Origin: Dictyostelium discoideum
Lineage: Eukaryota
Direction: 5' to 3'
Assembly (NCBI GenBank): GCA_000004695.1
Contig: CM000155.2
Span: 1,024,001 to 1,088,000, forward strand
Length of the DNA stretch: 64,000 bases
Made by a program: the position numbers and the translations under genes. Each line of letters opens with the position of its first letter. Position 1 is the stretch's first letter. Below the pieces are notes generated by a model. That model did not search any database, had not been told where the DNA came from, and saw only the letters and a program-made list of their open reading frames with translations. Positions 3,245-57,998 of the stretch are shown here, in pieces.

Positions 3245-6001
3245 ATGTTTAGTAGTATAACAAGTAAATTATCAGCAATTTCAGGTGGATCAAGTAAAAA
3301 TGATTATAAAGAAGCAAATTATTATAATTATTTTAGAATTTTAGAAAAGAAACAAACTGAAGAGATTGCAAGAAAAAGATGTGGTTTATATAGTTTAAAA
3401 AATCATAATAATGTATTTGTTTTAAAAGAGTTTTCAATTGAAACTGAAATTAATGATTGTAGTTCAACATCAATTTGGACACAAAGCTATTCAAATGATT
3501 CAAATACACCAGTCGAGGCAAAGTATCAATTACCATTACATCCAACATCGGTTGTATCAAATTTTCAAATTGAATATCAAGGTAAAGTAATTCAAGGTAA
3601 AATCAAAGAGAAAGAGAAAGCATTAGAGAAATACAATGATGCAATTGCAAGTGGTGGTCAAGCATTTATGGCAACAAAATCAGATGACGGTTATTTCAAT
3701 TTAACACTTGGTAATTTACCACCAAAAGAGAATGTTAAAGTTAGAGTTGTAATCTCATCAGAGTTGGGTACACATACCGATGGTCAATTACATTATTGTC
3801 TTCATCGTTATATGTTCCCATCTTATGCATTCAATTTCAACTATAATGTAGTTTTAAAATTTTCAATTCCAATTAAATCGATTGATTGTGATGGTTTTGA
3901 TGTAAATGTAAATTATAAAGAGAATTCAAGTAAAAAAGAAGCAAAAATCACATCAAAATCACAGCATACAAGTGGTGTTAAAAAGAATATAATTTTAATT
4001 ATTCAACCTGTTGAGCTAAATGAACCAAAATCCATGATTGAATATATTGGTGGTGGCGATGATAAATCTTATGCAACAGCAATTAATTTTTATCCATCAT
4101 TCAAGAATGTTAATCCAGATGAAGTTTATCAAAAGAGTGAATTTATTTTCTTAATTGATTGTTCTGGTTCAATGAGTGGTCAATCGATTAATAAAGCTAG
4201 ACGTGCTATGGAAATTATTATTAGATCATTGAATGAACAACATAAAGTAAATATCTATTGTTTTGGTTCATCTTTTAATAAGGTATTCGATAAATCAAGA
4301 GTTTACAATGATGAAACCTTAGAGATTGCAGGTTCATTTGTTGAGAAAATTTCAGCAAATTTGGGTGGCACAGAATTATTACCACCAATGGTTGATATTC
4401 TTTCCTCTCCAAATGATCCAGAGTATCCAAGACAAGTTTTCATTCTAACCGACGGTGAAATCTCTGAAAGGGATAAATTAATTGATTATGTAGCAAAGGA
4501 AGCAAATACAACTCGTATCTTCACCTATGGTATTGGTGCTAGTGTCGATCAAGAATTGGTTATTGGTCTTTCAAAAGCATGTAAAGGTTATTATGAAATG
4601 ATCAAAGAGACTACCAATATGGAGAAACAAGTAATGAAGTTATTAAATGTTGCATTTGAACCAATGCTTTCAAATATTAAATTGGATTGGTCATCATGTG
4701 GTCTTGTTGATGTCATTCAAGCACCTTCTCACATTAGACCACTTTTCAATCAAGAGAGAATGATGATCTATTCAATGATACCATCAAATCAAACCAATCA
4801 AGATATCATCAATGCCTCTATTGAGACTTCAAAACCATTAATAATCACTTTAACTGGTGATGGTCCAAAAGGTAATGTTTTATCATTCCCAATCACTTTA
4901 GATTTTAAAAATGATCTTTCTACAAATTCAAATCAAATTCATACTCTAGCTGCTTTTAAACATATTCAAGATCTTGAAGAAAGTGAAAGAAAAGAAAAGA
5001 AGGATAATAAAGATAAAATCGTTGAATTGGGTAAGAAATATGGTTTAGTTTCAAAACATACCTCTTATATTGTTACCGCTGATTCTGATAATGTCACTGA
5101 AGAAACAATGAAAACTGTTGACATTATGAATCAATCACCTCCTATTCGTCCTGGTGGTCGTATTGTTTCTAGAGGTGGTGGTAGAAGTGGTGCTAGTGGT
5201 GCTTTATCTTCAAGTATTTTGTCAAGAAAACGTTCATCCTCCCCATCTACTGCTACTAAACGATCTTCTTCATCTTCATTTTCATCTTCATATTTATCTT
5301 TATCATCTTCATCCCAAAAGAAGAAAAAAGAAGTTAGTAGAAGTGATGATGATGACGATGATGAAAAAATAGAAAATTGTGTTGAAAGTTATGAAAGTGA
5401 CGGAGGTGATCAATCAAGTGAACAAGATGAAGAAGAAGAAGACGATTGTGATGATTTCCATGAAGATCTAGACGAAGATTTAGGTGCTACCGCAATGGAT
5501 GTTGATAAAAAAGAATGTGAAAAAGAATGTAAAAAGAAAGATTCTTCAAAAGTTGACCTTAAAGTCAAACCTTCAAAAGTACCTCTACCATCAAGATCAC
5601 CTTCAGTTTCAAAACCAACAACAACATCACTACTTTCTCCATCTCCAAAATCAGCACCATCAGCACCATCACAACAAAAATCAGTTAAAAGTACTGGTGA
5701 TTTATTAATTGATTTATTAAAAATTCAAAAATCAAATGGTTCTTGGACAAAATCTTCTATTGATCAATTGAAAATCCCAACTGACAAAGCACCTGCCGAA
5801 TTATCAACTACTGAATTAAATGACATTTGGGTAACCATTATCGTTATTGCAAAGATTGTAAAATTCTTCTCATCTGAAAAAGCTCAATATGAACTTGCAA
5901 TTCAAAAATCAACAAGATGGGTAAAACTTCAATTATCGAAATTAAATCTTCCTGAAAATACTTTTGATAAATTTTTATCAAACGCTAAATCATTAGTTTA
6001 A
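3245..6001 (+). CDS. VIT (vault/inter-alpha-trypsin) + von Willebrand factor A domain protein, single exon, 918 aa. Ser/acidic low-complexity linker and conserved C-terminal block.
   Basis: Uninterrupted ORF. VIT signature KGKIKEKEKALEKYNDAIASGGQAF. vWA MIDAS motif FLIDCSGSMSG ... LTDGE. Paralogous to 22109..24990. Confidence 0.85.
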   Translation: MFSSITSKLSAISGGSSKNDYKEANYYNYFRILEKKQTEEIARKRCGLYSLKNHNNVFVLKEFSIETEINDCSSTSIWTQSYSNDSNTPVEAKYQLPLHPTSVVSNFQIEYQGKVIQGKIKEKEKALEKYNDAIASGGQAFMATKSDDGYFNLTLGNLPPKENVKVRVVISSELGTHTDGQLHYCLHRYMFPSYAFNFNYNVVLKFSIPIKSIDCDGFDVNVNYKENSSKKEAKITSKSQHTSGVKKNIILIIQPVELNEPKSMIEYIGGGDDKSYATAINFYPSFKNVNPDEVYQKSEFIFLIDCSGSMSGQSINKARRAMEIIIRSLNEQHKVNIYCFGSSFNKVFDKSRVYNDETLEIAGSFVEKISANLGGTELLPPMVDILSSPNDPEYPRQVFILTDGEISERDKLIDYVAKEANTTRIFTYGIGASVDQELVIGLSKACKGYYEMIKETTNMEKQVMKLLNVAFEPMLSNIKLDWSSCGLVDVIQAPSHIRPLFNQERMMIYSMIPSNQTNQDIINASIETSKPLIITLTGDGPKGNVLSFPITLDFKNDLSTNSNQIHTLAAFKHIQDLEESERKEKKDNKDKIVELGKKYGLVSKHTSYIVTADSDNVTEETMKTVDIMNQSPPIRPGGRIVSRGGGRSGASGALSSSILSRKRSSSPSTATKRSSSSSFSSSYLSLSSSSQKKKKEVSRSDDDDDDEKIENCVESYESDGGDQSSEQDEEEEDDCDDFHEDLDEDLGATAMDVDKKECEKECKKKDSSKVDLKVKPSKVPLPSRSPSVSKPTTTSLLSPSPKSAPSAPSQQKSVKSTGDLLIDLLKIQKSNGSWTKSSIDQLKIPTDKAPAELSTTELNDIWVTIIVIAKIVKFFSSEKAQYELAIQKSTRWVKLQLSKLNLPENTFDKFLSNAKSLV

Positions 6002-6468: not shown

Positions 6469-6929
6469 TAAGTCGTTGTCGGTGTTGTTGTTCACTTGAA
6501 AATATTTTTAATTTTAATCATAATTTTTAAAATAATTGGTAATAATTAAATCTCTCTATAATTTTTAATAATTATTTTTATATATTTAAAATATTGAACT
6601 TTTAACCAATGGTTATAGTGGATTCGTAATTGAAAAGTGAACTCTAAATCATTTGTAAATGATTATAGTTATAATAAAAATGAATTCTTATTAAATGGAT
6701 TGGTTATCATTAGTGAATAAAGATTTAATGGAACAGTTGTAATGGAAATGAATAGAATAATTTTAAATTGTTTCAATACATATGGTTATATTGATTCTTC
6801 AGGTAGTTCAGATGTTATTAATGAGAATACAGTTTAAACGAGGTTCTTTTAAAATTTTACCACCAATTTTTACCTAATTAATACCATAACAACCCGAGCA
6901 TTTATAGAATTCTTTTTTTTTACTTTATT

Positions 6930-7784: not shown

Positions 7785-7852
<68 letters not shown>

Positions 7853-15036: not shown

Positions 15037-15809
15037 GGTTTTTATATTTTATATTTATCGATAAACCTGCATGGATAATAGTATCGTACATAATAGCAAA
15101 GTAATTCCATTCGACCTCAACTTCTATTAAACAAGAAAAAAAAAAACCAAACCACCAGAGAAAAAAAAAAAAAACCACCAAAAAAAAAAAAAACCCACCA
15201 AAAAAAAAAAAAAACAACTATCAGCACCTTACAATTATACATTCCCCATTTTTTTTTTTTAATTTCAAAAAAAGAATTTAGAACCATAAATTATAGTGTT
15301 TTATTCTTTTATAATCAAATTTTCAACAAAATCAAATTTATAAAGTACTCAGCCTAAAACGTAAGTTTAAAATTATTTCAATCACCAGTAAAAAAATAAA
15401 AAAAACTTATTTTTTTTTTTTGGTCAAAAAGTTTTTTCTGTTTTTTTTTTCATACATTCACACATTCACAAAAAAAAGAAAAAAAAGAAAAAAAAAAAAA
15501 AAAGTTTTTTAGAATTCACAATAATTTTGATTCGATTGTTATGTTAAAACAAATTTCTCAATTTTTTTCATTATTTTAATTTTTTTTTTTTTTTTAAATT
15601 TTTTTTTTTTTCATTTTTAATTAAATACCACGCAAACAAACAACACAAAATTTTTTTTTTTTTTTTATTTCATTTCATTTCATTTTTTTTTTTTTTTTTT
15701 AATTTACACAAACACAAACAAACCAGCAAATAAATAATTAATATATTTTTTTTTATATAAATAATACTTTTACATGGTATAAAAGAGATGTAATTAGGAC
15801 CAGGTAAAA

Positions 15810-16608: not shown

Positions 16609-17340
16609 ACGAATCTTTTATTTTATATATAATTTGAATGTTGAAAATAAATGCAATTTAATTTAAATGTGGAAAAAAAAAAAAAATAAAAAAATAAAAA
16701 AAAACCCAACAAAAATAAAAAAAAAACAGAAATAACGTAAATAAGATAATAAAAAAAATTTATTTTTAACTTTTTTTTAAAAAAAATATGTTATCACCTT
16801 TTCCTTTTATTTTCTTTGTTTTTTTTTTTACCATACATCATCTGTGATTATTTTTTTTTTAATCTTATTTTCTTATTTATTATTTATTTTTTATATTTTT
16901 TATATTTTTTAGTTATTATTTAAATTTTTAAGACACACAAAATATTAATATCATCCAATTCAATTTAGAAATTTCCATCTACCCAACATTATTTTATTTT
17001 TTTTTTTTAACTTTTTTTTTTTTTAATTTTTATTTTTTTTTTTAAATTATTTTTATTTTTTTATTTTTATTATTTTTTTTATTTTATTATTTTTTTATTT
17101 ATTTTATTATTATAATTGGTATTATTATTATTTTTTTTTTTTGGAAATATGGTTTATTTTAAAAAAAGTTAATTAAAATTAAAAAAATTAAAATTTAGGT
17201 AAATAAAAACAGGATATATAATAAATATGGACTTTTCACGAATACAATTATTTTTATTTTTATTTTTTTGTTTTTTTTTTTTTTTTTTAAAAATTTTTTT
17301 TCATTTTTTTTTTTTTTTTTTCAACTTTTTTTAAAAAATT

Positions 17341-18111: not shown

Positions 18112-18153
<42 letters not shown>

Positions 18154-18269
18154 TTTTTTTCAATTTTTTTCAATTTTCTTTCCCTGGGCAACTAACTTTT
18201 TTTTTTATTATTTAAAAAAAATATTTAACTTGATTTTAAAAACCCATAGATATTTTCCCCATGGAATAA
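17751..18269 (+). CDS. febA: eIF4E-binding protein (4E-BP) homolog. Exon 1 17751..18042 (donor G|GTAAGT), putative 20-nt terminal exon 18250..18269.
   Basis: N-terminal RAIP motif (MSTTRAIPV). TPGGT phospho-site. Canonical eIF4E-binding motif YDRNALL(Q). RNSPLSKTPP matching the 4E-BP1 S65/T70 region. Exon 2 is the first AG downstream and gives C-terminus ..DDGDIFPME*. Confidence 0.75.
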
Positions 18270-18307
18270 GGGGGGAAAAAAAAAAAAAAAAAGTAGTATT
18301 GTATAAA

Positions 18308-18354
<47 letters not shown>

Positions 18355-20326: not shown

Positions 20327-20740
20327 TTAGATTTTGGTACATTTTTCATAGAAACATGAATCTTTGACTTCAGAGGCATCGGTACCTTGGATTTCAACTT
20401 GGATACCAACACAGGCTTTACGTAAAGAGTCTTTTGATGAGGTGGCCATCATTTTCTTTTTAATGTTGGCGGTATCTGGGCACCAGGCAACAAAACAGAT
20501 TTTGCTCTTTTGGGCACCTTCTTCTTTGTATTGATAGTCGAGGACAACGTATCTACATTCGTTTTCTGGGAGACATTTGGTGAATTCATCGAATGAACAA
20601 CCAGCTGGTAAGGTGGAGTCAACAATGATTTCTTTTGAATCGTCAGAGATTCTGTAGATGATACCACCATATTTACGACCTAACTTTAAATCGTTGAAGG
20701 TTGAAACGCAGTTTGGAGCTAAAGCAATACCTGAAGACAT
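20327..20740 (-). CDS. cofA/cofB: Cofilin (actin depolymerising factor), 137 aa, intronless here.
   Basis: ORF MSSGIALAPNCVSTFNDLKLGRKYGGIIYRISDDSKEIIVDSTLPAGCSFDEFTKCLPENECRYVVLDYQYKEEGAQKSKICFVAWCPDTANIKKKMMATSSKDSLRKACVGIQVEIQGTDASEVKDSCFYEKCTKI matches D. discoideum cofilin-1 as I remember it. cofA and cofB encode identical proteins. Confidence 0.93.
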   Translation of the reverse strand: MSSGIALAPNCVSTFNDLKLGRKYGGIIYRISDDSKEIIVDSTLPAGCSFDEFTKCLPENECRYVVLDYQYKEEGAQKSKICFVAWCPDTANIKKKMMATSSKDSLRKACVGIQVEIQGTDASEVKDSCFYEKCTKI

Positions 20741-22108: not shown

Positions 22109-24990
22109 ATGAATTTTATTAAAAAAGTAATTGGTGGTGGTAGTAGTAAAAGTAAAACCGATATTAAAATTGAAGATGAACAACATGAACAACAACATGA
22201 ACAACAACATGAAAAACAACAAATTCCAGATAAAATATCAACAAGTAAAGTAAATTCACCATGTGTTCCACCAACTTGTACATACATTTCAAAAGAAAAT
22301 GTTAGATCAGATTTATCATTAATTAAAGATTTCAATTCAGCCTATTACTATAACTATTATAGAACATTGGAAAAGAATTCCACTAATTTATTAACAAGTC
22401 CAGGTTTAAATACTAAAGTTGTTAGTAACCAATTTACATTAAAAGAATTTAATATTGTTTCAGAGATGACAGATTCATGCATTGTTTCAGTATGGACTCA
22501 GAAATACTCTAATCTATCATTGACACCAGTTGAGGCAGTCTATCAAATCCCATTAGCACCATATGCTACAGTTTCAGATTTTTCTGTAATCTTGAAGGAT
22601 AAAGTATTAAAAGGCAAAATCAAGGAGAACGAAAAGGCCAAAGAGAAATACAACGATGCCATCGCAAGTGGCGGCCAAGCATTCCTTGCTGAAAAAGTTG
22701 AAGGTTTCTTTAAATTACAAATTGGTAATTTACCACCACAAGAAGATGTAACTGTAAATATCACAATTACCTCTGAAATCGGTACACATTTAGAATCATT
22801 ACATTTCTGTTTACATAGATTCATTTTCCCAAAAAGTGCATTCAAATTCAATTATACATTGAATGCATCCCTTTCAACTCCAATCGAAACCATTGAAATG
22901 GATCATTTCCAACCAACCATAACCTACAAAGATGAATCAAAAACAAATGCAACCGTTACAATTTCAACAGAAAATGGTGTTTCAAATAATATCATTGCAA
23001 TTATTGTTCCAAAATATTCTGAAAAACCTGAATCTTTTATTGAATATTCACCAATTGATAAATCATATGCTCTTGCTATTAACTTTTATCCAAAATTCAG
23101 TGTTGGTCTTGATGAAGTTGATCAAAAATCTGAATTTATTTTCGTATTAGATTGTTCAGGTTCAATGTCTGGTAAACCAATTGAAAAATCAAAAATGTAA
23201 TTATTATTATTATTAAAAATATAAATATATCAATTTTAAATTAATTATTAATATTTTTAAATTTTTATTTTTTTTATAGGGCATTAGAAATTTGTATGAG
23301 AAGTTTAAATGAAAATTCTAAATTTAATATTGTTTGCTTTGGTAGTAATTTTAATAAATTATTTGAAACTTCAAAACATTATAATGATGAAACATTACAA
23401 AAAGCAAGTGAATATATTAATAGAATTGATGCAAATTTAGGTGGTACAGAATTATTAGAACCAATTGTTGACATTTTATCAAAAGAAAGTGATCCAGAAT
23501 TCCCAAGACAAGTTTTCATTTTAACTGATGGTGAAATTTCAAATAGAGATAAATTAATTGATTATGTTGGAAAGGAAGCAAATACAACTCGTATCTTTAC
23601 CTATGGTATTGGTTCTTATGTTGATAAAGAGCTTATTGTTGGTGTTTCAAAAGCATGTAAAGGTTATTATGAAATGATTGTTGATAACTCTGATATGGAA
23701 GAAAAAGTTATGAAATTAATTAGTATTGCAATGCAACCAACTCTATCAAATATTAAAGTTGATTGGGGTGTTCTTTCAAATGTAGTTCAATCACCTGCTC
23801 AAATTAGACCATTATTCAATCAAGAAAGAATGATGATTTATGCAACCCTTGATAAAGAGCCAACTGAAAAACAAGTAACTGTCATTCTAAGTGGTAATGG
23901 TCCATTGTCTGAAAGAATTTCATTCCCAGTGGATTTGGATTTCAGTAAAGCAAATCAATCAACTAGTCATATTCATACTTTATCAGCTTTCAAACATATT
24001 CAAGATCTTGAAGAAAGTGAAAGAAAAGAAAAGAAGGATAATAAAGATAAAATCGTTAAATTGGGTAAGAGATTTGGTTTAGTTTCAAAACATACCTCTT
24101 ATATTGTCACTGCTGATTCTGATAAAGTAACTGAAGAAACAATGAAAACTGTTCAAGTTTTAGAACCAACTCAACAAATCAATACCAGTCCTGGTAGTGG
24201 TAGTGGTTTTATTCCAACAACAAGAGTTCAAGGATCATCATCAGTTTTCCCATCCTCACCAACACCTTTGTCAGGCCCATCACCATACACAGTCTGTGCA
24301 CCACCACCACCACCACCAACATCATCACCATACACAAACTGTGCACCACCTCCACCACAATTTTCCAGATGTATTGCACCACAACCATATCAAAGTGCAC
24401 CAGCACCACCAGCACCACCAGCACCATCAAGACTTTCTCAAGCACAATCACAAATGGATTATTGTGATCAAGAATTATTATGTGAAAGTTTAGAGGGTGA
24501 TTTATTAGTTGAAGAAGAGGAGCTAGAATGTAAGGAAATAGAATGTTCACCACCACAAAAATTAAGTTATATTACACCATTTGCACCAACATCACAAATT
24601 AGTCAATCATCAAGAGAATGTAGATCTAAAAAATCCTCTTCTCCAACAATACAAAAATCATCATCATTACCATCAAGACCATCAACATCATCTTCATCAT
24701 TAATTGAAATTATTCGTCAACAAAAAGCAAATGGTTCATTCACAAAATCATCAGTTTCAAGCTTTATTAATGTTGATACACCACCACCATCATCAGATAT
24801 TCCAGAAGATGTTTGGACAACTCTTTTAATCATTGCAAACTTTATCTTAAACTTTGATTCACAAAAGAGTCAATGGGAATTAGTTTCACAAAAAGCTACT
24901 AAATTTGTTAAACAACAAATTATTAAATCTTCAATCGCTTCAACTTTTGAAACCCTTTTAGAATCTGCTAAAAAATCAATTTCAAATTAA
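22109..24990 (+). CDS. VIT + vWA domain protein, paralog of 3245..6001. Two exons approx 22109..23196 and 23280..24990, about 932 aa.
   Basis: VIT signature KGKIKENEKAKEKYNDAIASGGQAF. vWA MIDAS FVLDCSGSMSG. Intron GTAATT..TTTATAG (83 nt) falls exactly where paralog 1 is uninterrupted (..SKM|ALEICMRSLNE vs ..RRAMEIIIRSLNE). C-terminal blocks IQDLEESERKEKKDNKDKIV.LGK..GLVSKHTSYIVTADSD.VTEETMKTV and ANGS.TKSS are near-identical to paralog 1. Confidence 0.85.
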
Positions 24991-27055: not shown

Positions 27056-28655
27056 ATGAACAGATATAAAATTCAATGGTTATTTATAATAGTATTAATA
27101 TTAATAATTATAAGTGACACTTGTTTTAGCATAGAGAATAATAATAATAATTATAATGCTATTAATGACGATAATGATAGTTTTAAAGATGGTGGATTTA
27201 CAAGTTGTGGAGGATATATAAAGAATAATTTCAAGTATACTCAAAATAATTTCAATTACAGTAAAATAGTAATGAAATTAATAGATATAAGAACTAAAAA
27301 AGTCGTTGAAACTTCAGAATGTTCACCAATTGATGGTTATTACTTTTTACCAGTTTACGAGAGAGGTTCTTATAAAATTCAATTTGATTCACCATCTGAT
27401 TGGATATTTGGTATGTGTTTCATTCTTTTTCATTTTATTATATTTTTAATTATATATTAACTATTTATATATATATATATATATATATTCAAACTAAATA
27501 ATAAAGATATAAATTCATATAAAATTACGGATTTAAGACAATGTAAAAATAAAGATATAAATTTCGAATTATTAGGATTTAAAGTTGAAGGTTATATAAA
27601 AAGTGATAAATCATGTAAAGTAAATAAAAATAATGATAAAGATACTGATGATGCTCATGATGATGATGGTCCAGCTTTATTTGCAATTAATTCATATAAT
27701 ATAAATTATCAGTCAATAAAATTAGAATTACTATTAAAAAAAAATAAAAAAAAACAAATTAATAAAGAAAAAGAAGAAAAAGAAGAAGAAGAAAAAGAAG
27801 AAGAAATAGTTGATACAGTATTAACAAGTTTAAATGGTTATTATAGATTTGATGGTGTTAAACCAATTTCAAAATCATCTAATCACTATTATATTATTAG
27901 AATATCAAATGATCAAGTAGCACCAATATCATATTGGAGTTTTTTAAAAGATAAAATTGAATTTCAATTTGATTGGGATAATGTAATAATTGATAAACCA
28001 TTAATTATAAATGGTTTCGATGTTTCTGGTACAGTTTTAAATGATAATGAACCATTAGATTCTGTCATATTAACTTTATATTCAAAATCTTTAACTTCAA
28101 TTAAACATTGTAAACCATTAACAAGTAAGTGCACGCATACCATCCCCTTCTCTTACTTTTTTTAAAAATATTAACTTTTTTTTTTTTTTTTTTTTTTTAT
28201 TATTTTAGATACTATTATTAAAGGATTTAGTTCAATTTGTTCAATTGAATCAAATAGTGATGGTAAATTTATATTTAAAAAAATACCATGTGGAAATGAA
28301 TATAAAATCATAGCACAATATAAAAAAGATAATGTGAAATATGATATTGAACCGGAGGAATATATATTCGATGTTGATGGTAGTGGTAGTTTATCATTGG
28401 ATACTGATAAACAAATCATATTTAAATTGAATGGGTTTAGTGTAACTGGTTTGGTTTTAGATGATAGAGGTTTACCATTCACTCAAGAGATTGTAAACAT
28501 TTATGTAAATGGTCAAATTAAATCTCAAACTCATAAATCTGATGGTTTATATATTTTAGATTCAATAAAACCTGGTACTTATAAAATTGAAGCAAAATTA
28601 AATAATTATAAATTTAATTTACCATCATTAGGTGGTAATAATAATAATAAAAATG

Positions 28656-28709
<54 letters not shown>

Positions 28710-29406
28710 TTTTAATTGAACCACCAAATAATTTAATTATACCAAATATTACATTAAAATCATATCAAATAACTGGTAAATTAAAATTAAGTCAAAAAAT
28801 TGAACTAAATTTAATTCCTTCACTTGGTCTTTATAATCGTAATGATAATTTAGAGAATGGTAATCAAGCAAAATTTATTTATGAAGAAATTGAAGTTTTA
28901 CTAATTGAAAAAATTAAAATTCAATCAACATTTGATTTTAATAATGATATCAATATGAATTTAAATCAAGAGAATGATGAATCATTTGAATATATTCAAG
29001 TTTCAACTTGTAAATTAAATAAACAAGGTTCATTTGAATTTGATGTTATTAAATCTGCAAATTATATTGTTAAAATTAAAGATAGTACTAAAAATCAATT
29101 AATAAACAATAATATTCAATTGGAAAGAGATGAATTTCACGTAACTTTAAATCATAAATCAATTGGTGGTTTAGAATTTAGACAAATCACTACCCAAATT
29201 AATGGTAAAATTAAACCAATAACAAAATCAAATGATATTAGAATACCTTCTGGTTTATTAGTTGAATTAATTAAATTAATTGAAGTTGATTCACCACTAA
29301 ATCCAGATCAACAACAACAACAACAACAACAAGCATAACAATGAAAATCAAGATAATAATCCTAATCATAATAATAATAATAATAATAATAATAGTAATA
29401 ATAATG

Positions 29407-29449
<43 letters not shown>

Positions 29450-32184
29450 AATTAAAAGAATAATTAAAATTGAATCAACAGAACAATCTATATTTATTCA
29501 GCCATATGTTAATAATCAAGGTGAAGCTATATTTACATTTGATGATTTATTAATTGGTTATTATAGATTAAGAATTGATTACGATGATTGGTATTGGGAA
29601 GAGAAAGAAATTGAATTATTTGATATACCACCACCATTATAATTAATCTTTGATAATGATAATGATAGTGAAACAAAAAGAAATGAAAAAATTCAATCAC
29701 TATTGGAATCTGTTAATATCGTTGAATTCAAACAAACTGGTTTTAAATACATAATTGAATCAAAAAATATTGAACAAGAAGATTCAGTTATAATATCACA
29801 TAGATTAAATGGTGAAATTATTGATAATGTACAATTAAAGAAATTAATTTCACCAGAACAACAACAACAACAACAAGATGATGATAATAATAATAATAAT
29901 AATGAAGAAAATAATAATAATAAAAAGATAACAACAGCAACATTAAATAATTTTATTTTAAAAGAAGGTGGATCACATGAATTTATAGTTAAATCATGTT
30001 TTCAATTTCCAAATGGTGAATCATATACTTTTGATACGAATAATGATTCAAATAAACCAAGTTGGTTAGTAAGTAATAAGATTAAATTAGAGATTGAAAA
30101 ATATTTAATTGAAGGATCAATTGATTTAACAATGCTAATCAATCAATTTCCATCATTAAAAAGACAACAATCAAATCAACAAGGTGGTTTAACAATTAGA
30201 ATTAAATTAATTAATCCAAAAACTAATCAATTACTTGATCAATTAGATACTTCAATCTCTGATTCTTCAATGATTTATCAATTTAATTTCATGTCTTCCT
30301 TAAATGATGACCAAATTCAATTAATACCAATTATCAATTTTAATAATTTTATTAATGATAATGGTAATGGTGATGATTTAATAATAATAACTAAAGATGA
30401 TATTTTATTTTATCCATCTTCAAGAGTTTTTAAAATCGATCCAAAAGATAAAGGTAAATGTCAATTACCAATTGAACCATTTATTGGTAAATTTGGTAAA
30501 TTTATAAATGGTAAAATTGATCCACCACCAACTGGTGGAATGGTAAAGGTTATTGCTACTGCACAATCTTTAAATGATGTTGGTTCAATTAAGAGTGCTG
30601 AAATCTCTACAATTTCAAATGAAAATGGTGAATATAGAATTGGACCACTTTATGAAAATGTTAAATATGAATTTTATCCAATTAAAGAAGGTTTTCATTT
30701 TAAACAAATTTTTCATAATAATAATAATAATGGTGAAACATCATCATCGTCGTTTATTAATTTTAAATCAATTAAACATGGTTCAATTAAAGTTTTCATT
30801 AAAGATAGTAAAACAAATTTACCTGTTCCTGATGTTTTATTATCATTAAGTGGTGCTATTAATTCTCCAATTTTAAATAATAATGGTCAACAACAACAAC
30901 AACAACAACAACAACATGACGATGATGGTAAAAATCAAGAAATTCCACCATATCGTAAAAATGTTCAATTATCAGATAATGGTTCAATTATATTTGATTC
31001 ATTATATCCAAATAGATATTACTTAAGATCTGTATTAAGAGAATATTCAATTACACCAAGCTCACAAATTGTTCAAGTTTTGGAGGGTAAAGAAGAATTG
31101 ATTGAATTGGTTGCAACTAAAGTATTGTTTTCAGCAAGTGGTAATGTTTGTTCATTAAATAATGTTCCATTTTCAAATATTTATGTATTTTCATACAAAG
31201 TTATAGAATTAAAAGATTTTGATGGTAATTTAATTTCAACATCATTGGAATTATTTAAAGAATGTAAAACTGATGAAAATGGTAATTTTAAATTAAAAGA
31301 TTTTACAATTTCTTCAAAATATAAAATTAAAATTTCAACTGATAATAATGATACTAATAATAATGAAAAAAGTGCACCAATAATTTATGATATTAAATAA
31401 AAATGAAAATGATATTAAAGACTTAAATTTCATTTTAATAGTTCAACCAACAACACCATCAATTAATACTTTTCAATTGGTTGGTAATATTGTAATGAAT
31501 GGTAATTTAAATAATTATAAAAGACAAAATCAATTTATGCATTCATCAATTAATAATAATAATAATCATTATTATTATTATTATTATAAACAAAATATCA
31601 ATAATAGTAATAATAATAATAATATATTACCAAAAGGATTAAAAGTACATATTTATACAAAAAGTAGAAGTGGTAATCAATTACTATTGGTAAAATCATT
31701 AGATATATCAATGTTTAATATGTTTACAAGTTTATTAGATAAAACTAAACTATCATCAAAACCATATTTAATTAGAATTGAAAAAGAATCAACTAGATCA
31801 ACGAATAATAACAATATTAATAATAATAATAACTTATACCAAATTGAACCAAAAGAAATTGAAATTCCAATGGAATGCTCAAATTTTAAAGAACAATGTA
31901 ATGTCACTTTTCAATTTAATTTTAAGACATCCAGCAGTGGTTTACTTGATGACAATAATGGTGGTGGTGATGATGATCATCAATTCGATTTAGTATCAAT
32001 ATCCTACTCAAGTTTAATCATTGGTTTGGTTGTTGTATTGTTAATATTCTATCCAAACCAAATCCATTCATTAGTTACACTAAAGTTTTTAAATACTAAA
32101 AAAATTAAATCAAAATTTTCATCTTCTTCATCATCATCATCTTCATCCTCCTCCAATAAATTGAAATTAAAGAAAAAGAAATAA
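27056..32184 (+). CDS. NOMO (nodal modulator/pM5)-like protein with repeated carboxypeptidase-regulatory-like beta-sandwich domains, signal peptide and C-terminal TM anchor. Clean exons 27056..27410, 27507..28124, 28209..29338. Downstream coding continues in ORFs 29339..29639, 29643..31397 and 31387..32184 with frame breaks.
   Basis: Signal peptide MNRYKIQWLFIIVLILIIISDTCFS. Repeated G.Y.I....Y.F domain ends (GTYKIEAKLNNYKFN, GYYRLRIDYDDWYWEE, NRYYLRSVLREYSI, GNFKLKDFTISSKYKIKIS). C-terminal TM LIIGLVVVLLIFY then a short tail. Canonical GTATGT/GTAAGT..AG introns for exons 1-3. Confidence 0.7.
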
Positions 32185-33383: not shown

Positions 33384-33868
33384 CTTATGTTTGTTATTTA
33401 AAACAAAAAAAAAAAAAAAATTAAAAATAAAAAAAAAAAATTTCAAAAAAAAAAAAAAAAATCTTAAAAAATAAAATAAATAATTAAAATAATAATAAAA
33501 AAAAAATATTTAAATTTGGAAAATAAGTGAAATCATTTTCTTTTCAAAGTACCCCTTTTTTTTATAACCAATAAGTAGAATTAAAAAAAAATAAATTCAA
33601 TTTTTAAAAAAAGTTGGTTTGGATGAAGTTCAAATTTTTAAAAATATCATCAAATTATTTTATTACCAAAAAAGTAATAATTCAATAAAACACATGAATT
33701 ATTATTTTTAAAATAAAAATAAAAAAAAAAGGAAAAAACATTATTTAGGTTCGATATAATTTAATTCAGAAAAAAAAAAAAAAAAAAAACCAGTTTTATT
33801 AAATTTAGAAATGAAATACAACAATTTTTATTTTTTTATTTTTTTTTTTTTTTAAAAAATTAATTTTC

Positions 33869-33903
<35 letters not shown>

Positions 33904-34458
33904 AAAAAATAAAAAAAAAAATAAAATTCCTCCGCCCTTTTTTTTTTTTTTTTAAGGAAAATTCATGGACCAAAAAAAAAAATATTTATCTTATCAGTTA
34001 ATTTTTAATTAATTTCAAGTAGTTAATTTAAATTTCTGAATAAATTTATTGTTTGTAAGATCTCCTAAATTGGACCTTATTTTATTTTTTTTAGAAAAAA
34101 ATAAAAAATAATAATTAAATATAAAAATAAAAATAAAAAATTAAAAAAATCTTAAAACATAATAAAAAAAATCTTAAAACACAATAAAAAAAAAAATTAA
34201 AAAAAAAAAAAAAAAAAACATATTTATTTAATTCTTCTTTTGCATATCACCTAACCAATAATTTATAAATTATAATATATATATATATATGATAGTTTAG
34301 GTTTATTATTATTATTGTCATTTAGAATTATTTTGGATAAATACAAAAACAACAAAAATAAACAATATCAATTTTTGTAAAGAAGTAAAATAACAAAAGA
34401 AAACACAAAAAAACACACATAAAAAAAAAAACACATAAAACACAATATATAGATAAAA

Positions 34459-35755
<1,297 letters not shown>

Positions 35756-38123: not shown

Positions 38124-38925
38124 ATGAGTGATATTATTTCAATTGAAAAAATTAATGAAAATGAAATTTCAGTGTTAATTAGACCAATGCATATAAATGA
38201 TATAAATACAATTTATTCAATACAAAAAGAAATATTTCCAGCTGATGATTTATTTGAATCTTATGAAGCATTTGAAAATAAATTTTTAGTTTATCCACAA
38301 GGTTGTTTTTGTGTTGAATTAATTTTAGAGGGTGAAATAATTGATCAAGAAAATATCAATAAATATGAACCATCATCAGATTTAGAAATTAATAAAAAGA
38401 AATTACTAGGTCATTTCTTTTCACATCCATGGACAAAAGGTGAATTTCCACCATTAAATAACGCAAAAGCAATCAATGATGGAGTTGATAAAATCATTGA
38501 TAGATCAATAGGTGAGTTGGTAACAGGTGTAAATAAAGAGAATGTAATGTTATATCTTAATGAAATCGCAGTTAGACCAATGGCAAGAGGTTTCAATTTA
38601 GCACGTTTATTATCAAATAGAGTTTTACATCACCTTTCAAAACAGTCACCATCATTTGACCATATTGGGTTGGTTTCTGTTCAAGGTTCTTTCACAGTTT
38701 GGGCTTCGATCGGTTTCGATATTGATCATAATTTACCACAAAAAAAAAAAGATTATCTTTGTAAAAATTATGGTGAAAAATCTTGTTATATGAAAATGGA
38801 TTATTCAAAGAAAATTAAAAATTTAAAAAATAATCAACTTTATATTTGTCCAAATTTAATTTCAAATAATGTTAATAGTGGTATTTATTATTATGGTAAA
38901 TTATTTAAAGAAGTTAAAAGAGTTT

Positions 38926-45486: not shown

Positions 45487-45532
<46 letters not shown>

Positions 45533-45820
45533 GGCGTTTTTTTTTTTTTTAAAATTTTTTAAATTTTTTTTTTTTAAGTGATAACTGAATTGTCTTTAAA
45601 AATTTTTTTACAAATAAACAACATATAAATAATAATAATAATAATAATTATAATTATAATAATAATAATAGTAATAATTATAATTATAATAATATACTAA
45701 ATTAAAATTTTTATTAATGATAATAGATTAGGAAAAACAATAAAATAAATAATAATAAGAAAATAAAATAAAATAAAATATATAGAGTTTTAAATATATA
45801 TATATTTCAATATATATATA

Positions 45821-47920: not shown

Positions 47921-57998
<10,078 letters not shown>

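Follow-up and report, generated by a model that had tools for sequence, protein, structure and literature searches.

The NOMO Locus

The window analyzed here is a 64,000-nucleotide stretch of Dictyostelium discoideum DNA (assembly GCA_000004695.1, contig CM000155.2, positions 1,024,001 to 1,088,000 of the forward strand). In its A+T-rich sequence, a gene on the + strand (27056-32184) resembles NOMO, and its coding frame is interrupted three times within the last exon. NOMO is the large luminal subunit of the BOS complex, which it forms with NCLN and TMEM147 at the translocon of the endoplasmic reticulum (ER); its signal peptide is followed by a string of Ig/transthyretin-like β-sandwich domains, with one transmembrane helix and a short tail at the C-terminus. 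The nature of the three breaks is the subject of this analysis.

The gene comprises three exons. Translation starts in exon 1 (27056-27410), which also encodes a hydrophobic signal-peptide-like N-terminus (MNRYKIQWLFIIVLILIIISDTCFS) as well as the first NOMO β-sandwich, the latter matched by the Pfam family NOMO1-like_1st with E=3.8e-14. Exon 1 is followed by a 96-nucleotide (nt) intron (27411-27506, GTATGT...AG, 90% A+T), exon 2 (27507-28124), and a second intron of 84 nt (28125-28208, GTAAGT...AG). The first junction is in frame and agrees with the alignment of the orthologues (see below); both introns join the three exons in frame, as a preliminary description of this DNA had it. Exon 3 (28209-32184) is split in the window into four open pieces. 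The three breaks all precede the region encoding the C-terminal transmembrane helix (YSSLIIGLVVVLLIFY, 32005-32052), which corresponds in the alignment to the membrane-spanning segment of the orthologues and is followed by a short basic Ser-rich tail.

The pieces encoded in the window match the Pfam families NOMO1-like_1st, NOMO_3rd, Ig_NOMO, NOMO_8th, and NOMO1-like_9th, which is their canonical order, although the NOMO_8th match is weak (16.6 bits for a curated cut-off of 27). Furthermore, a phmmer comparison of the longest open piece (585 residues) with the PDB chains retrieves an experimentally characterized NOMO, the BOS complex subunit NOMO2 (9c7v_B), with E=4.8e-18. The topology, as read from the translation and the alignment of orthologues, is of type I: a signal sequence leads into a long luminal part, and the only transmembrane helix, at the C-terminal end, is followed by a short cytosolic tail. 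By its domain content, its topology, and its likeness to the solved NOMO2, the predicted product qualifies as a typical NOMO family protein. The NOMO-like identity proposed in the preliminary description is therefore borne out by the Pfam domains and the PDB match, as well as by the dictyostelid orthologues.

The human proteins NOMO1, NOMO2, and NOMO3 (PDB ID: 9c7v, chain B) display the same order of the 1st, 3rd, Ig_NOMO, and 9th Pfam domains. They share with the Dictyostelium product the hydrophobic N-terminal leader, the single C-terminal transmembrane helix, and the short tail, and the W-C/Y-W and V-E-F-x-Q-T-G motifs are kept in the Dictyostelium gene. A literature search combining NOMO and Dictyostelium returned only matches to "nomogram".

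Three Breaks in Exon 3

Three-frame translation of the window finds three discontinuities, all at the places previously reported. At the first one, a (CAA)8 tract (29309-29332) is followed by GCA TAA; the stop at 29336-29338 closes the frame of exons 1-3, and coding goes on, with a shift from frame 2 to frame 0, in a frame open from 29301 to 29639. The second break is an in-frame TAA (29640-29642) between ...FDIPPPL and LIFDNDNDSE.... It sits in a species-specific insert located between the conserved W-x-W motif (29586-29603) and the sequence VEFKQTG (29721-29741). Beyond it, the frame remains open over 585 codons (29643-31397) and closes at a TAA (31398-31400). At the third break, the frame shifts from 0 to 1, and the next frame runs from 31384 to the stop at 32182-32184. 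This break (31396-31402) is located inside a conserved β-sandwich strand, where the window reads TTAAATAAAAATG at 31393-31405. The 9-nt repeat that had been noticed in its vicinity is present as well: GATATTAAA occurs at 31389 and again at 31411, with a spacing of 22 nt. The forms of the window at breaks 1, 2, and 3 are CAAGCATAAC, CCATTATAATTAATC, and TTAAATAAAAATGAAAATG, respectively.

The four open pieces of exon 3 are 374, 113, 585, and 266 codons long. At the local composition, a stop would be expected about every 10 codons, and the probability of 585 open codons is ~2e-27. These lengths are far beyond chance, and the flanks of the breaks are therefore clearly coding. Pfam matches and the alignment of orthologues on both sides of every break agree with the earlier impression that genuine domain sequence surrounds each of them.

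Comparison with an Independent Assembly

A second assembly of the locus (NCBI GCA_054883475.1, contig JBTAPE010000034.1, 2.2 Mb) was reached through the exact look-up of three intact neighboring genes, namely a 270-residue open reading frame (ORF) at 38124, a 918-residue vWA protein at 3245, and a cofilin at 20330-20740, each of which returned one record. The three loci merge into a single stretch that is colinear with positions 1-48980 of the window, at 99.4% identity. In this assembly, a gene is annotated over the NOMO locus, with a product of 1649 residues.

Exons 1 and 2 are identical between the window and GCA_054883475.1, and within the whole gene the two assemblies differ solely at 29334, at 29361-29641, and at 31396-31402. 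At 29334, the window (CAAGCATAAC) has an extra C relative to GCA_054883475.1 (CAAGATAAC); where the window reads G-C-A-TAA (29333-29338), the other sequence, devoid of this C, reads CAA GAT AAC AAT. The frame shift reported close to the (CAA)8 tract is thus there, although it results not from a change in the number of CAA units but from the additional C, located two bases past the end of the tract. The region 29361-29641 contains ten substitutions, the last of which yields TTA (Leu) in GCA_054883475.1 instead of the TAA at 29640-29642. Finally, at 31396-31402 the window displays TTAA--ATAAAAATG, whereas GCA_054883475.1 has an 11-nt stretch, TTAATTTTGATGATG, whose 2 additional nt leave the frame uninterrupted.

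Each of the three breaks hence coincides with a difference between the assemblies that restores the frame. The intact forms at breaks 1, 2, and 3 are CAAGATAAC, CCATTATTATTAATC, and TTAATTTTGATGATGAAAATG, and the corresponding junction peptides are ...QQQDNNEN..., ...PPPLLLIF..., and ...YDINFDDEND.... At the third site, the orthologues alternate hydrophobic residues in a pattern (I-x-V ... D-V-x-x-h-D-F) that the translation of GCA_054883475.1 (...IIYDINFDDENDIKDLNF...) follows better than either frame of the window does. Exon 3 of GCA_054883475.1 remains open over 1325 codons, as one ORF that ends at the stop shared with the window, and its addition to exons 1 and 2 of the window gives exactly 1649 residues. 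The preliminary description had named, among the results that would refute it, single-base differences on resequencing that restore one continuous ORF; differences with this effect are found in GCA_054883475.1, and they lead to this single product. Its Pfam matches are NOMO1-like_1st (E=4.8e-15), NOMO_3rd (E=4.4e-8), NOMO1-like_9th (E=1.3e-9), and Ig_NOMO (E=3.5e-6), the last at 27.4 bits for a cut-off of 27.5, the fragment alone scoring 31.4 bits.

The differences are confined to two patches. The first one (29334-29641) gathers one indel and ten substitutions in 308 base pairs (bp), spans an (AAT)n tract, and holds breaks 1 and 2. The second one is the 7-bp stretch of break 3 (31396-31402). 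Following the first patch, the gene is identical between the assemblies for 1,754 bp. The probability that ten of the 112 substitutions would land in one 308-bp stretch is ~3e-9.

These data bear on whether the gene might have decayed in one strain. A real, strain-specific pseudogenization would imply that the strain of the window carries a true frameshift, a nonsense codon, and a complex indel, while the gene of the other strain is intact. The lesions are indeed present in the window sequence, and the lack of a D. discoideum NOMO in the protein collections (see the next section) is consistent with a pseudogene annotation or with no annotation at all. However, none of the three lesions is reproduced in GCA_054883475.1, and relaxed constraint has left no trace across the gene, since no difference exists outside the 308-bp and 7-bp patches: the remainder is base-for-base identical to the intact copy, with ORFs of up to 585 codons. 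Between two assemblies that otherwise look clonal, three disabling hits accompanied by ten nearby substitutions, against none in ~30 kb of other coding sequence, are not credible as recent mutations, and such a decay is considered unlikely.

Alternatively, the gene could be truly broken, and GCA_054883475.1 could have closed it through artefacts of long-read consensus or polishing. Such artefacts might account both for its shorter homopolymers (29 of the 31 length differences) and for its purer AAT repeat. They would have, however, to drop one base, to alter the exact stop codon, and to rebuild an orthologue-like 11-nt stretch in order to produce a 1325-codon ORF. Moreover, it is GCA_054883475.1 that has the more complex version in several non-coding patches (GAAAGAAAGAAAGAG for an A-run, CACA for CCCC). 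An erroneous repair is accordingly given very little weight.

Orthologues and Protein Collections

A HMMER search of 1.84 billion representative sequences returned 349 homologues, the top four of which are dictyostelid proteins (E=1e-32 to 1e-35): DICPUDRAFT_98145 of D. purpureum (1387 residues), CYY_002290 of Polysphondylium violaceum, DFA_00520 of Cavenderia fasciculata, and SAMD00019534_094610 of Acytostelium subglobosum. They are 36-39% identical to D. discoideum NOMO. A MAFFT alignment shows them to be colinear over the entire length between signal peptide and C-terminal transmembrane helix. All four are single intact proteins, contiguous over the three break sites; the comparison with D. 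purpureum and Polysphondylium suggested in the preliminary description hence finds these segments uninterrupted, and the same holds for the two other species. Breaks 1 and 2 fall in inserts that are missing from the orthologues, a poly-Q/poly-N linker and the stretch from W-x-W to VEFKQTG, respectively. Both sides of every break align with the orthologues, from which it follows that the broken regions are not introns in the relatives.

In principle, cryptic or non-canonical introns could excise the stop codon and both frameshifts, and frame-compatible GT...AG pairs do exist around each break (e.g., 29591-29668 and 31372-31420). No candidate, however, possesses a GTAAGT-type donor as found in the two real introns, and their A+T content (73-86%) does not exceed that of the surrounding exon. 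Each one would also remove sequence aligned with the orthologues, be it the W-x-W motif, VEFKQTG, or the strands around DIKDLNF. The enumeration of GT...AG pairs having yielded only implausible candidates, the earlier remark that no canonical GTAAGT-type donor excises the breaks without loss of domain sequence holds. In addition, the 1649-residue product of GCA_054883475.1 corresponds to the two-intron model, so that no intron is needed at the breaks. Further introns are very improbable.

Programmed recoding, in which ribosomes would shift frame by +1 twice and read through one TAA, has in its favor that both shifts are +1 and that the downstream frames are intact. Yet the copy from the same lineage requires no such event, and the four dictyostelid orthologues are continuous proteins over the break sites. 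No dictyostelid gene for an ordinary ER protein is known to us in which recoding takes place three times. This explanation is the least probable of those weighed here.

The Dictyostelium product (1649 residues) is longer than the solved chain of human NOMO2 (1267 residues), to which it is ~30% identical. Other NOMO matches are mostly ~1,100-1,390 residues long, and the excess length in Dictyostelium is due to poly-N, poly-Q, and poly-E/K inserts.

The D. discoideum NOMO protein was not found among roughly 15 billion proteins, the best match displaying 39% identity, although these include the proteomes of four other dictyostelids. Word-indexed protein searches with the 585-residue piece and with a clean 139-residue piece gave no match, the orthologues being retrieved only by the HMMER search. 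This absence suggests that the reference annotation lacks a protein model for the NOMO locus. As for a third source of the sequence, exact look-up of the 265-residue terminal ORF returned no record in a collection where only one assembly of the species turned up, and two metagenome scans of the break-2 region, with either variant allowed, produced no match.

Probable Error Signature across the Window

The two assemblies look clonal, with identical runs of up to 4,196 bp and, outside the NOMO gene, no coding substitution in 49 kb. Gene sequences of wild D. discoideum strains are ~0.14-0.3% divergent (bioRxiv 10.1101/2025.10.22.684067), which means that natural variation cannot account for patches diverging by 3-8%. 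The substitutions are strongly clustered: 95 of the 112 are found within nine patches totaling 1,643 bp, of which seven are non-coding and of low complexity. Besides those of the NOMO gene, dense patches are located at 1759-2022, 6480-6887, 15037-15198, 17119-17237, 18152-18289, 33790-33970, and 45517-45601, with 5-22 substitutions each. The non-coding patches adjoin homopolymers or microsatellites, and the window usually presents the more G/C-rich or "smeared" version. Some of them look like unresolved base calls of the window, such as CCCC for CACA, an A-run for GAAAGAAAGAAAGAG, or AAGGAAAATTCATGGACC for ATGAATATTCATTGATC. These features suggest that the seven patches are low-quality stretches of the window assembly.

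The spectrum of the differences points in the same direction. Transitions and transversions number 30 and 82, and the window has G/C where GCA_054883475.1 has A/T in 62 cases, the reverse being observed in only 12 (binomial P=3e-9). An excess of G/C is expected from random miscalls in A+T-rich DNA, which makes the spectrum miscall-like. Clustering that extends to non-coding DNA and a spectrum of this type are both what errors of assembly would leave. They also weigh further against pseudogenization, since the lesions of the NOMO gene lie in two dense patches like those found in non-coding DNA throughout the window, and since the spectrum of the differences resembles miscalls rather than mutations. 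Two mutational sources were considered and discarded: nitrosoguanidine mutagenesis of the laboratory strain predicts G:C-to-A:T transitions, whereas the window shows the opposite, with mostly transversions, and an A+T-biased mutation process would likewise give the opposite of the G/C excess of the window.

Differences from the reference have been documented before. Resequencing of AX4-derived lines revealed 1,916 differences from the reference common to the lines, which the authors attributed to reference errors, to differences in the ancestor, or to mutations during growth of the founding cells (PMC3466296). More recently, Holland et al. deposited, in August 2025, Nanopore and Illumina assemblies of AX2-214 and of wild isolates (PMC12745789). 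This deposit is a plausible, as yet unverified, source of GCA_054883475.1.

Origin of the Breaks

Taken together, the comparison of sequences favors, with a probability of about 0.84, local errors of base calling or assembly in the window assembly as the cause of the three breaks, the gene being an intact and ordinary NOMO orthologue. Two short low-quality patches (29334-29641 and 31396-31402) would be at fault, the first one beginning at, and spanning, a long CAA/AAT microsatellite. Their content would amount to one spurious inserted base, one miscall of TTA as TAA, and one garbled stretch of 9-11 nt. The window is probably the older, Sanger-type reference of D. discoideum AX4, and GCA_054883475.1 appears to be a recent assembly of long and short reads; from this contrast, the discrepant bases of the window would be technical and not biological. 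Furthermore, three disruptions of an ORF can arise from errors, whereas three repairs cannot, which places the derived or erroneous state at the NOMO sites in the window. Among the four explanations put forward in the preliminary description, assembly or sequencing errors are retained, while pseudogenization, cryptic introns, and readthrough are disfavored by the intact copy in GCA_054883475.1, the clustering, the spectrum, and the orthologues.

Several points weigh against the attribution of the breaks to errors. The comparison is one of two assembled sequences, only one of them independent of the window, and the strain of either one is at best presumed. The substitutions of the first patch are not of an obvious "neighbor smear" type, and the AAT tract of the window is the more complex one, with CCT, CAT, AGT, and GAT interrupting AAT; one could read this as a repeat homogenized in GCA_054883475.1. 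There is also a low probability that a real strain-specific lesion is embedded in an otherwise error-prone stretch. Should the lesions be real in the strain of the window, and should this be the axenic strain in wide use as a reference, that strain would naturally be NOMO-null, an outcome with a low probability. NOMO would then be dispensable for the growth and development of Dictyostelium, and a ready-made knockout would be at hand in every laboratory.

The favored attribution to errors finds parallels in the false pseudogenes created by gene-fragmenting errors in references. There, too, disabling changes occur only within short discrepancy clusters, an independent assembly of the lineage is free of the breaks, and conservation is perfect everywhere else in the gene. 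In contrast with the usual concern over indels in long-read assemblies, however, here the older assembly appears faulty and the long-read one correct.

Other Features of the Window

Homopolymers are longer in the window in nearly all of the length differences mentioned above, which mostly concern A or T runs of at least 15 (e.g., 7786-7804, 18311-18324, and 45517-45531); the longest one reaches 61 in the window and 42 in GCA_054883475.1. In a mitochondrial-carrier gene, a CAT/TCA trinucleotide repeat contains 18 extra nt in the window (TCATCATCATCATCATTT, 35165-35182), which preserve the frame; either the microsatellite differs in length or one of the assemblies has collapsed it.

Two paralogous VIT/vWA-domain genes (3245-6001, 918 residues, and 22109-24990, 932 residues) lie on the same strand, ~19 kb apart, and the second one harbors a single intron of 83 nt (23197-23279). 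A single-exon cofilin/ADF gene of 137 residues is located on the - strand (20327-20740); its exact protein is found on one contig only in the look-up collection. At 49395-57998, an ORF of 2,867 codons belongs to a gene whose annotated product in GCA_054883475.1 is 3,240 residues long. It possesses extreme poly-N tracts, including one run of more than 50 Asn.

Significance for NOMO in Dictyostelium

The three breaks are best classed as not being a real biological feature, and the value of the comparison is one of curation. It provides a corrected 1649-residue NOMO product and flags seven further low-quality patches in the window. D. discoideum NOMO is missing from the protein collections searched, in which four other dictyostelids have one, and this absence would be due to the three sequence errors. 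As a consequence of the missing protein, surveys of the presence or absence of the BOS complex and of the multipass translocon would wrongly score D. discoideum as devoid of NOMO.

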